Below are positions 3,379 to 5,364 of a DNA stretch of 6,858 nucleotides, piece by piece. The stretch lies in IMG/VR virus record IMGVR_UViG_2713896785_000014; one strand, written 5' to 3'. The stretch is from a virus. Lineage: Duplodnaviria; Heunggongvirae; Uroviricota; Caudoviricetes. Made by a program: the position numbers and the translations under genes. The first letter of the stretch is position 1. The number at the start of each line of letters is the position of its first letter. Below the pieces are notes generated by a model, which searched no databases, had not been told where the DNA came from, and saw only the letters and a program-made list of their open reading frames with translations.

Positions 3379-4041
3379 TCAGACAAAACCGGCCGCCTTC
3401 CGGCGCTCATATTCCTGTTTCAGCAATTCAATTGGCGTTGGCCCTGGCGGGCGTTTGGGTGCTGCCAGTTGTCGCCGGACTGGCGGAACACTGAGGCCAT
3501 TACCAACATGCTTTGCCCATTTCGTCAGCTGCCTTTCCACAAGCCGTTTTAACTCCCCTTCGGTCATCTGGCGCTCAATCCCCTTTGAACGCATCTCGAG
3601 GCAAATGTGGTACAGCACCGGCTGTGGCCACGGGTATTTATCACTCCCGTCGTACCGCCAGGATTCATTCCTCCAGCGACGGTATTCCTCCATCACGGCA
3701 TCCACCGTCAGGCCAAATGGATTTGCCCCGCTCTCCGAAATCAACGCCACAAACTCAGCCAGATCCGGAGGCCACGTTTCACCCGCCCGGCAGCGGTCCA
3801 TGCACCGACGGCAGATCTGCCGGATTTGCTGTTCAGTCATCGCGCCAATCTGAGCAATCCAGAGTTTCGACGGCGCAGCCCCGTTCTTCTGAGTCCAGCG
3901 GTTCGAATACACCTCCCCCATAAGCTCCCACAGCTTCCAGGCCGTTTCCGTTGCTGATAAATCCGTTTTCACGTTCCCACTGTTCGCGTGCAGCCCGGAT
4001 TTCCTGAACTGCCCGTGATGCGGTGCCACCTGGTGCTGCAT
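3379..4041 (-). CDS. P: replication protein P-like (DnaB helicase loader)
   Basis: ORF track. By eye the protein aligns with lambda P as recalled: EFVALISES vs [29 protein letters not shown] vs ESYPWKSNAHYWLVTNLYQNM, and a basic C-terminal tail. Lies directly downstream of the initiator gene. The ATG at 4041 has the best Shine-Dalgarno (AAGGGGGTAAGCC-ATG) and gives a lambda-P-like length, but overlaps the initiator ORF by 209 nt; alternative starts are at 3921 and 3840. Confidence 0.7.
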
Positions 4042-4870
4042 GGCTTACCCCCTTGCTGACTGGTTTTACCTGTGCCCTGACGTGCTGCACGTGGCGGGCA
4101 AATTTCTGCTCCCACTGAACCTGCGTGAAAACCTTCCCCTCCGCCATCCAGTAATCCCGGAATGCGGCAAGCTCAGCAGGTGTAAACTCAGGCTCAGGCA
4201 GAGCCATACCCCACACTGCTGCCCGCTGTCGAAAATCCGGCGACGGTTGCCAGACTCCAGTCATCGGAAATTTCCCGATCGGTTCGCTCAGGCCGTCCAG
4301 GTATTCAGGTTCGGCTGTCTGCAACGACGCGTCATTCAACTCACCGGTCGTAGCACTCTCGCGCATGCGCGCGTTATGTGTGGGGTTTAATTCTTTATCT
4401 GTATCTGTATCTGTCGTGATTTGTCGTGACATATGCGTGACGCGTCGTGACTCATCGTGACAATCAGTGTTCTGCTTCCGCAGTCTTTCCCGCTCCCGCT
4501 GCGCTCTCTTGCGCTCTGCCGGGGATTTTGCGGTTTGCGAAACATTACCGTTATCCTCCTTCATCACCTGGCGTTTTTCCCATCCGGAAATAAGATCACC
4601 ATCCAGAACTCGCCCCTGCATTGCATGCAAAATTGAATCAATCACGTCTTCCGTCACATCAAGCGCACTTGCTAAATCTTCCGTCGTGACATCAATGTGA
4701 CCACGTAGTGACACGCCGTGACATGTCGTGACATTTCGTGACGCACTCACCAGAAGGTGGATATACACCGCCATCACTGTTGCGATTGGCTGTCCTGAGA
4801 CCCTGGCAATGGTTCGCCATTTGGGATCATTTGGCATGTCATGCCACAATCTGAGCCAGGCATTAGCCAT
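3833..4870 (-). CDS. phage replication initiation protein (O-like; N-terminal DNA-binding domain, DnaT-like C-terminal region)
   Basis: ORF track gives 3833..4876 with a GTG start; the ATG at 4870..4868 is preceded by GAGGTGAGT and is preferred. The gene contains two internal direct-repeat (iteron) arrays and lies between the cII-position gene and the P-like gene. C-terminal half (WQPSPDFRQRAAVWGMALPEPEFTPAELAAFRDYWMAEGKVFTQVQWEQKFARHV) recalls DnaT / replisome-organiser domains; not lambda O sensu stricto. Confidence 0.7.
   Translation of the reverse strand: MANAWLRLWHDMPNDPKWRTIARVSGQPIATVMAVYIHLLVSASRNVTTCHGVSLRGHIDVTTEDLASALDVTEDVIDSILHAMQGRVLDGDLISGWEKRQVMKEDNGNVSQTAKSPAERKRAQRERERLRKQNTDCHDESRRVTHMSRQITTDTDTDKELNPTHNARMRESATTGELNDASLQTAEPEYLDGLSEPIGKFPMTGVWQPSPDFRQRAAVWGMALPEPEFTPAELAAFRDYWMAEGKVFTQVQWEQKFARHVQHVRAQVKPVSKGVSHAAPGGTASRAVQEIRAAREQWERENGFISNGNGLEAVGAYGGGVFEPLDSEERGCAVETLDCSDWRDD
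4397..4461. repeat. iteron array A: (ATCTGT)x3 then five direct CGTGA(C) repeats at 10-11 bp spacing; putative ori core
   Basis: CGTGA copies start at 4415, 4425, 4436, 4446, 4456; (ATCTGT)3 at 4397..4414; A+T-rich stretch 4384..4400 adjacent. Entirely inside the initiator ORF. Confidence 0.6.
4682..4742. repeat. iteron array B: six direct GTGAC repeats at 10-11 bp spacing
   Basis: GTGAC copies start at 4686, 4697, 4708, 4718, 4728, 4738, all in the same orientation as array A; inside the N-terminal coding part of the initiator gene. Confidence 0.55.
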
Positions 4871-4938
4871 ACTCACCTCATCTGATACCGAACTTTACCC
4901 TCGAACATCCGGAATAAATCCGGCATGAATATTGTTGG

Positions 4939-5364
4939 TCAATGCACGACAACAGCATTACCAGGCTGACCACCACTGTTAGTCAGGGTGCCCCAGGCGA
5001 TCGCCGCTGCGACAAAATCATCCACATCTTTCACCAGCCGATCCCTCCGTTCGACGATCTCACGGTAATATTCAGAGCTGTGACTGCGCATACGGGCCAC
5101 CAGCAGAGGCGGCATTGCCTTTTCGATCGCCGGTAACAGAGCCTGAATTTTTTCAACAGCATCAGGGGTGTCTTTATCCAGCCAACGGAAAATTTTCTGG
5201 GTATTACGAGCCAGGGCTTCCGGATGGCTGTCGTCGTACAGTTCCGGGAACGTCATCCCCAGCTCGAAATAAGTCCGGGCTATTTCAGCTGCAGGAACTT
5301 TCTCACCGTCCGGATAGGCCCAGGCATTGATCGCCATGCGGATGTGCTCATGTTTGATTTTCAT
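4939..5364 (-). CDS. ydaT: YdaT-like protein (occupies the cII position; DNA-binding regulator or toxic factor)
   Basis: ORF track; ATG 5364..5362 preceded by AAGGAAAGGGGGATTC; ATGA overlap with the stop of the Cro/YdaS-like gene. N-terminus MKIKHEHI... and ~140-aa size match my recollection of the YdaT family of Rac/CP-933P prophages. Assignment is from memory, not a search. Confidence 0.55.
   Translation of the reverse strand: MKIKHEHIRMAINAWAYPDGEKVPAAEIARTYFELGMTFPELYDDSHPEALARNTQKIFRWLDKDTPDAVEKIQALLPAIEKAMPPLLVARMRSHSSEYYREIVERRDRLVKDVDDFVAAAIAWGTLTNSGGQPGNAVVVH

Follow-up and report, generated by a model that had tools for sequence, protein, structure and literature searches.

Two arrays of short, helically phased direct repeats lie inside the replication initiator gene of a 6,858-bp stretch of viral DNA (Duplodnaviria; Heunggongvirae; Uroviricota; Caudoviricetes; IMG/VR record IMGVR_UViG_2713896785_000014), hereafter called the window, which matches a lambdoid (Rac-like) prophage region in E. 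coli O157:H7 at 100% identity. We consider it likely that these arrays are iterons for the N-terminal domain (N-domain) that they themselves encode and that, together with an adjoining A-rich run, they make up the replication origin of the prophage. The feature is real, and its reading as an origin is backed by comparative evidence: the arrays have been kept across many genera, which marks them as a probable replication origin. The elements on which this account turns are as follows.

3833-4870, minus strand: replication initiator (replisome organizer) gene, 345 amino acids (open reading frame; RefSeq, PHROG and NCBI names)
4415-4461, minus strand: array A, four GTCACG units and one ATCACG unit on the gene strand (sequence, motif scan)
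4685-4742, minus strand: array B, six GTCAC(G) units on the gene strand (sequence, motif scan)
4386-4415, no strand assigned: candidate DNA-unwinding element, with (ATCTGT)x3 at 4397-4414 (nearest-neighbor stability)

Two phased arrays within the initiator gene

Read on the plus strand, array A consists of CGTGAC at 4425, 4436, 4446 and 4456 and CGTGAT at 4415, and array B of GTGAC at 4686, 4697, 4708, 4718, 4728 and 4738, extended to CGTGAC at 4685, 4717, 4727 and 4737. These five and six copies, their common orientation and their 10- to 11-bp spacing had been listed in an initial annotation made from the sequence alone, and all were recovered by direct reading and motif scanning, as was the (ATCTGT)x3 run at 4397-4414; the initiator frame, which runs on the minus strand, does remain open through both arrays and encodes the peptides that were quoted for them. 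On the gene strand, the units are spaced by 10, 10, 10, 11 and 11 bp in array B, which lies about 230 bp upstream of array A in the gene, and by 10, 10, 11 and 10 bp in array A. Every unit of both arrays has the same orientation, the spacing approximates one helical turn, and the 6-bp core, GTCACG, has no dyad.

The number and phasing of the units exceed what base composition or coding would provide. Eight of the nine occurrences of CGTGAC on the plus strand of the window fall within the arrays, and the total for both strands (10, against 2.5 expected, with a standard deviation of 1.8) was reached by 1 of 200 shuffles. Tandem Repeats Finder independently delimited repeats at 4392-4414 (period 6), 4424-4461 (period 10) and 4708-4742 (period 10). 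In a codon-preserving control, in which the synonymous codons of the initiator gene were permuted 20,000 times, the 10 copies of GTCAC in the gene compared with a permutation mean of 3.5, and a single permutation reached 10; the eight pairs of GTCAC at 10 to 11 bp exceeded the permutation maximum of five, and no permutation matched the observed phasing. The unit, moreover, rotates through codon frames 1, 2 and 3 in both arrays (3, 1, 2, 3, 2, 1 in array B; 2, 3, 1, 3, 1 in array A) and is therefore not a peptide repeat, one DNA word being read as SR, VT or CH according to the frame.

Conservation of the arrays and concerted change of the unit

For a synonymous-site test, 26 GTCAC-class homologues from many genera were aligned by codon, and conservation at third positions inside the motif was 0.97, against 0.56 at other third positions and 0.82 at first and second positions. 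Both of the sequence comparisons that had been put forward with the initial annotation, against codon-shuffled versions of the gene and among related initiator genes, thus came out positive, the repeats going beyond what the protein needs.

Many gamma- and beta-proteobacteria have phages or prophages with this initiator module. Arrays of GTCAC(G) stand at both gene positions in phages Evi and Tritos (86% amino acid identity), in Aeromonas pAEv1818 (56%) and in Pseudomonas Marin and phi1 (61%), and also in prophages of Shigella, E. albertii, Aquitalea, Entomomonas, Rahnella, Bordetella, Serratia, Gilvimarinus, Acidovorax, Chromobacterium, Pseudothauera and Castellaniella; relatives of Escherichia, Aeromonas, Pseudomonas, Bordetella and others carry a four-copy array B at the matching position. 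Protein identities of 46 to 70% argue against recent horizontal spread as the source of this conservation. In farther relatives the unit is a different one, GTAACG or CGAACGC, and is common to both arrays, and in TL-2011b (41% identity), each of the two positions is occupied by one 28-nucleotide (nt) unit with a 19-nt dyad.

We surveyed 50 diverse loci, scoring as an array any phased chain of at least three copies. Array A was present in 43 loci and array B in 35, all of which had array A too; in 33 of the 35, a 5-mer was common to both arrays. Some relatives (L122, L131 and L135) carry array A only, without array B. The second cluster recognized in the initial annotation is therefore genuine, and, as judged across these loci, the two-array layout is a family trait in which the unit changes in both arrays in concert. 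An ACG core is kept in all unit classes. The N-domain residues that separate the GTCAC and CGAACGC classes are amino acids 46, 47, 48, 58, 77 (I/V), 117, 122 and 124; the first four are encoded by array B, and the last three lie in a basic helix described below. The change at amino acid 77, in the recognition helix, is conservative; otherwise that helix is conserved from class to class, as is the wing.

The distance between arrays, first copy to first copy, ranges from 250 to 281 bp with no helical phase lock. Copy numbers were counted in 80 close relatives: array B has six copies in 77 loci and four in the other 3, and array A has from three to six. Relative to the four-copy form, the array B of the window carries a 21-bp insertion, equal to two units and seven codons, and the three- and five-copy forms of array A likewise differ by 21 bp. 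Two loci (L038, ~448-560, and L074, ~1700-1810) have an array A with one unit more or fewer (6 or 4 copies; 10 bp), and both are frameshifted, the open reading frame stopping at amino acid 157 with the N-domain alone left. These one-unit alleles could represent decay or a slippage switch; as a further possibility, whole-unit slippage of array A may act as a switch to a protein made up of the N-domain only.

The motif scan also found one copy that was absent from the list in the initial annotation:

4653-4657, plus strand: lone inverted unit, GTGAC on the gene strand, 33 bp downstream of array B (motif scan)

It is kept at an equal offset in most GTCAC-class relatives, and L109, of the GTAAC class, has GTTAC where the others have the inverted unit. 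Its significance at the DNA level is uncertain, since conserved residues D-V-T are encoded there.

A conserved run of low stability beside array A

In the first 900 nt of the gene, the least stable 30-mer lies at gene nt 456-485 (window 4386-4415; z = 3.6), and the lowest G+C content of the gene, 0.35 to 0.375, is found at 4370-4429. This candidate unwinding element is A-rich and purine-rich on the gene strand, and the copy in the window encodes DTDTDKEL. Among 42 homologues drawn from three iteron classes, the least stable 30-mer starts from -1 to +22 nt past the last array A unit in 39, with z values of 2.5 to 4.6. The family version of the run is (AGATAA/AGATAC)n, encoding DKDKD or DTDTD, and it is conserved across iteron classes, whereas the iterons themselves are not. 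The A+T-rich stretch that the initial annotation had noted beside array A is modest in the window (~35 to 37% G+C over 40 bp) and strongly conserved across the family.

One further element was found by a stem-loop search:

4357-4385, no strand assigned: G+C-rich alternating purine-pyrimidine palindrome, CGCGCATGCGCGCG at 4360-4373 (stem-loop search)

The palindrome adjoins the A+T-rich run on the side opposite array A, a placement reminiscent of the lambda origin, where a palindrome adjoins the A+T-rich region. In TL-2011b, a related (CG)n stretch follows the A-rich run.

The initiator protein and the placement of the arrays within it

The N-terminal 153 amino acids of the initiator belong to PHROG 3729 and 1408, both designated "replication initiation protein"; NCBI names members of its cluster "phage replisome organizer", and its RefSeq name is "DnaT-like ssDNA-binding domain-containing protein". 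The assignment made in the initial annotation, that of a replication initiator, therefore stands, and the gene is followed by one for a lambda-P-like helicase loader. From the N terminus onward, the protein comprises a predicted DNA-binding domain, a basic helix and a linker, with a DnaT-like domain in its C-terminal part; two of these can be delimited on the DNA.

4073-4282, minus strand: DnaT-like three-helix bundle, amino acids 197-266 (Pfam PF17948, E = 1.4e-17)
4463-4522, minus strand: basic helix, amino acids 117-136, AERKRAQRERERLRKQN, between the winged-helix core and array A (AF2, the AlphaFold2 model)

Amino acids 197-266 align to DnaT residues 84-153 of the solved chains 6aep and 4ou6 (E = 3e-20), a domain that in DnaT binds single-stranded DNA and forms filaments (PMC4132743). 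Equivalence to DnaT does not extend to the full length: the full-length DnaT model NF002770 scores 93 bits against a cutoff of 201 bits and covers profile positions 80-156 only, and the N-terminal 190 amino acids of the initiator are unrelated to DnaT. A Pfam scan of the whole initiator returned the DnaT domain and no match to the lambda O family. The match to TIGR01714 (phage_rep_org_N) spans profile positions 1-118 of 119 and is weak (E = 0.0026; 17.9 bits against a 49.8-bit cutoff).

The AF2 model has a mean predicted local distance difference test (pLDDT) score of 71, with the core above 89, and presents in order three helices, a low-confidence loop or hairpin (amino acids 46-62), a helix-turn-helix (63-70 and 74-84), a beta-hairpin wing, a disordered stretch, the basic helix (117-136) and a disordered tail. 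A Foldseek comparison of the N-domain with the PDB gave weak matches of winged-helix type (CRP, MepR and a plasmid initiator), all with E > 0.1, and "winged-helix-like" is therefore used here only as a description of the helix-helix-hairpin order. In this model, array B (gene nt 129-186, amino acids 43-62) corresponds to the low-confidence loop before the helix-turn-helix, and array A (gene nt 410-456, amino acids 137-152) corresponds to the disordered interdomain linker. Both arrays would thus be placed where the protein can tolerate a sequence imposed by the DNA, namely, a permissive loop and a disordered linker.

The N-domain and its arrays as a mosaic module

The gene is a mosaic. The C-terminal half (3833 to ~4400) has 85 to 88% nucleotide identity with phages that have a different N-domain, and the N-terminal 153 amino acids are common to phages with a different C-terminal half. 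The mosaic junction coincides with array A and the A-rich run, homology of the C module ending at 4397-4410 and that of the N module at about amino acid 153. The downstream partner varies as well: the window has a P-like loader at this place, Aeromonas pAEv1818 a "replicative helicase", and the D3-like Pseudomonas phages a primase-helicase. Upstream, at least 15 unrelated clusters of open reading frames precede GTCAC-class arrays, and a YdaT/CII-like cluster is found with four iteron classes. The arrays therefore track the N-domain, their sole constant partner, and not the neighboring genes. In the D3-like Pseudomonas phages (L005, 1501-2401; L006, 1501-2396; L139, 4001-4890), we observed that the homologous gene is short (186 amino acids, N-domain only), split or unannotated.

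The pattern is also largely specific to the gene. When both strands of phage Evi (complete genome, 40 kb) were scanned, phased GTGAC chains were limited to these two arrays, and no distant second binding region of the oriR kind is present in that genome. A scan of IMG/VR with GTCACn5GTCACn5GTCACn6GTCAC gave 196 matches in 120 contigs, of which 185 fall in a gene of the family at the offset of array A or B; among the others, five lie at contig ends that lack the gene start, and the match in L222 is to array A of a family gene that is disrupted.

Arrays elsewhere were few. A single four-copy GTCAC array with 10-, 10- and 11-bp spacing was seen in E. coli prophage-like islands (L152, 2003-2038; L228; L254), in an unannotated stretch of ~1.8 kb (L260, ~4800-6600) near PerC-family and DUF1441 genes, with no initiator of the family within 600 nt. 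Part of this stretch matches 1,174 of 5,426 genomes, and at least 80% of it is covered in only 23. Such an array could serve the same initiators as an additional target or mark the origin of a different element. Two unrelated viral contigs carry intergenic-looking arrays of four to five GTCAC copies at 10- to 12-bp spacing (L220, minus strand, ~1100 from that end; L225, 8822-8870), and the family N-domain motif is absent upstream of them.

The module of N-domain and arrays was found in 644 of 5,426 complete E. coli genomes, at 1,207 places and up to four times per genome; several O157:H7 chromosomes have three places that match a 601-bp query around the arrays. Eleven plasmid records contain the module, mostly large E. 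coli plasmids or misfiled chromosomes, and these are not informative on autonomous replication. Two 51-kb circular Pseudomonas aeruginosa records with the module are phage genomes.

A model of the origin and the evidence that bears on it

We propose that, at each array, N-domain monomers would bind in a head-to-tail row on a single face of the helix and that the complex at array A would open the (AGATAC/AGATAA)n run at 4386-4415, aided by the complex at array B through looping or wrapping of the ~230 bp between them. The DnaT-like C-terminal domain would hold the exposed single strand, and the P-like loader would recruit host DnaB. The initial annotation had proposed array A and its A+T-rich neighbor as the origin; at the level of sequence this proposal is sustained by the position of the array at the junction of the N- and C-terminal domains and by the adjoining DNA, the least stable of the gene. 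On the best reading of the comparative data, array A and the A-rich run would form the origin core, since they are nearly universal in the family, and array B would be a coevolving accessory array, since many lineages carry it and some do without it. The ACG core common to all classes matches the invariant parts of the N-domain. The model is least certain about what array B does; cooperation with array A is favored because array B has been held at three to four copies in the long term, with the unit and orientation of array A.

Several observations weigh against this model or parts of it. Array B is missing from L122, L131 and L135 and is therefore not essential to the basic mechanism, and an array-to-array distance that is not phase-locked lends no support to a rigid, in-phase loop. 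The A+T-rich run of the window is short and only about 63 to 65% A+T. The assignment of a fold to the N-domain is weak, with Foldseek E values above 0.1 and a TIGR01714 score below the cutoff. The prophage of the window (L001) may be defective because its integrase is truncated, and the origin perhaps no longer fires here. Experimental evidence of binding, unwinding or origin activity for this family was not found in the searchable literature, nor was a published description of this origin, subscription-only papers being outside the search.

Alternative explanations

A serious rival, by analogy with iteron plasmids, is that array A and the A-rich run are the whole origin and that array B exerts negative control; we hold this to be possible, on the doubtful side. 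Control might operate by titration, by handcuffing, with array B paired to array A of the same or a sister molecule, as with the P1 incA iterons, or by a roadblock, in which array B, from within the gene, would lower the transcription of initiator and P as the initiator builds up. Like the control arrays of iteron plasmids, array B is dispensable in some lineages that have array A; its unit and orientation match those of array A, which titration or handcuffing would need, and it lies early in the initiator and P transcription unit. The lack of a phase lock between the arrays is also compatible with control, and with up to four copies of the module in one E. coli genome, control through shared iterons would matter. 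A lytic or induced phage, however, gains little by limiting its own replication. In P1 and F, the control arrays are noncoding and not part of the minimal origin, whereas array B is in the codons of a structured domain, and its maintenance at three to four copies over very long evolutionary distances also speaks for an accessory function in initiation rather than for control.

Very unlikely, in our view, is a regulatory function in which the arrays are sites for another protein, such as the upstream CII/YdaT-like regulator, CI, Cro or a host factor, and serve, for instance, an antisense promoter within the gene. The sites of lambda CII are direct repeats with 10-bp spacing, and a YdaT/CII-like gene stands directly upstream of the initiator gene in the window and in Evi, pAEv1818 and Marin. 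The variety of upstream genes (at least 15, unrelated to one another) and the occurrence of the YdaT/CII-like cluster with four iteron classes nevertheless argue against an upstream regulator as the protein that binds the arrays, whose only constant partner is the N-domain, and four to six copies in two arrays exceed the known architecture of CII sites; we rejected such a regulator as unlikely. A host factor would leave unexplained the unit switches between lineages with common hosts, and the window contains no integration host factor (IHF) consensus and DnaA-box-like matches only at chance level. An internal promoter or RNA element was likewise rejected: a search of 3700-5700 for sigma-70-like promoters was negative on both strands, and the window has no Rfam family.

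We give almost no credence to the view that the repeats are peptide repeats or slippage residue in a low-complexity linker and have no function as DNA: array A does lie in a disordered linker and array B in a low-confidence loop, where slippage products would be tolerated, and copy number differs among close relatives, but the unit runs through all three codon frames without a repeated peptide and its synonymous positions are near invariant (against 56% elsewhere), which led us to reject such a relic, and the two separate arrays switch unit together, with position and orientation fixed across gamma- and beta-proteobacterial elements.

Relation to known origins

The iteron model invites comparison with lambda, whose origin lies inside the initiator gene and consists of one cluster of four iterons, each with an 18-bp inverted repeat bound by an O dimer, followed downstream by an A+T-rich, easily unwound region (PMC6022878). 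As in lambda, the repeats of the window are inside the initiator gene at the boundary of the N- and C-terminal domains, with an A+T-rich segment directly downstream, a G+C-rich palindrome past it and then the gene for a P-type loader, which lies directly downstream of the initiator gene; as in lambdoid phages generally, the N-domain and the putative origin travel as one mosaic module. Unlike lambda, the units are direct, 10 to 11 bp apart, with a 6-bp core and no dyad, and form two arrays ~230 bp apart, and the protein is outside the lambda O Pfam family and has a DnaT-like C-terminal domain. The contrast drawn in the initial annotation between short direct units in two arrays and the four dyad-symmetric iterons of 18 to 19 bp in lambda was correct.

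The oriL of bacteriophage SPP1 in gene 38, the gene of its replisome organizer G38P, has direct repeats ("AB boxes") and an adjacent A+T-rich unwinding element (PMC5737612, PMC6316719), and a second binding region, oriR, lies kilobases away (PMC6316719). The embedding of repeats and candidate unwinding element in the organizer's own gene resembles the SPP1 arrangement, and the NCBI name "phage replisome organizer" and the weak full-length alignment to TIGR01714 may point to a likeness to G38P. The differences are that the TIGR01714 score is far below the cutoff (17.9 against 49.8 bits), that the second array is inside the same gene with no distant array in phage Evi, that the repeat units are other ones, and that a P-like loader and a DnaT-like domain take the place of G39P and G40P.

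Two-part origins have other precedents. Satellite phage P4 has an origin in two parts, ori and crr, ~4.5 kb apart and both acting in cis in replication, and its initiator, a primase-helicase (alpha protein), binds a short repeat in both clusters. The present arrays would share with P4 a short repeat in two separate clusters, putatively bound by the initiator; the initiators are unrelated, and the P4 clusters are not in the coding sequence of a DNA-binding domain. Plasmid iterons are 17 to 22 bp long and lie outside coding DNA, flanking the rep gene. In P1 (incC and incA) and F (incB and incC), two arrays of the same iteron are served by a winged-helix-type initiator (review, PMC4980987). Two arrays of one iteron accompany the initiator gene here as they do in these plasmids, which offer a parallel for a controlling or pairing function of array B, but the units are 10 to 11 bp and both arrays are inside the gene.

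At E. coli oriC, short DnaA sites about one helical turn apart guide a head-to-tail oligomer to the adjacent unwinding element. By analogy, the initiator of the window may also use phased arrays of short sites and may combine double- and single-stranded DNA binding; DnaA, in contrast, is an AAA+ protein, and the arrays of oriC run in opposite directions and are not inside a gene.

Implications of the two-array layout

A layout of two arrays in one initiator gene is not described for phage lambda, and 6-bp cores repeated at each helical turn, with a second array in the codons of the DNA-binding domain, would extend the lambda model. If the iteron model holds, the analysis offers an origin map for a common initiator module, comprising a core array, an unwinding element and an accessory array. 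The unit classes (GTCACG, GTAACG, CGAACGC and others) form a natural series for the study of co-change between initiator and site. Coresident prophages may share or compete for one iteron class, and those with a class in common could cross-activate or titrate one another on induction; such cross-talk would be relevant to Shiga-toxin-producing strains with many lambdoid prophages.

A more speculative idea, which we think improbable, is that the specificity determinant of the initiator is encoded by its own binding sites. If the array B loop touches the bases that vary between units (GTC, GTA or CGA before ACG), the DNA that is read would be the DNA that spells the reading residues. In that case, site and specificity would be physically tied together and would pass from phage to phage as a single ~460-bp block.

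Gene neighborhood and other features of the window

The order of genes in the window (repressor, Cro, CII/YdaT-like, initiator, loader) places the arrays in a lambdoid replication-gene region.

5671-6330, plus strand: CI-like LexA-family repressor
5361-5588, minus strand: Cro
4939-5364, minus strand: CII/YdaT-like gene, directly upstream of the initiator gene
3379-3840, minus strand: lambda-P-like helicase-loader gene (Pfam PF06992, E = 4e-16; PHROG 109; RefSeq)

The label of PHROG 109 is "P-like helicase loader", and the RefSeq name of the loader is "replication protein P"; its gene shares 8 nt (3833-3840) with the end of the initiator gene and is followed in gene order by a DUF1627 gene. RefSeq places the start of the initiator at ATG 4870, and the longest open reading frame begins two codons earlier, at GTG 4876. 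Outside the window, hokD, dicB, Q and a gene of the RusA family are found in the prophage in addition to the truncated integrase. Two runs of the window are masked with N (452-521, 70 bases; 1124-1173, 50 bases), and open reading frames that cross them show runs of X.

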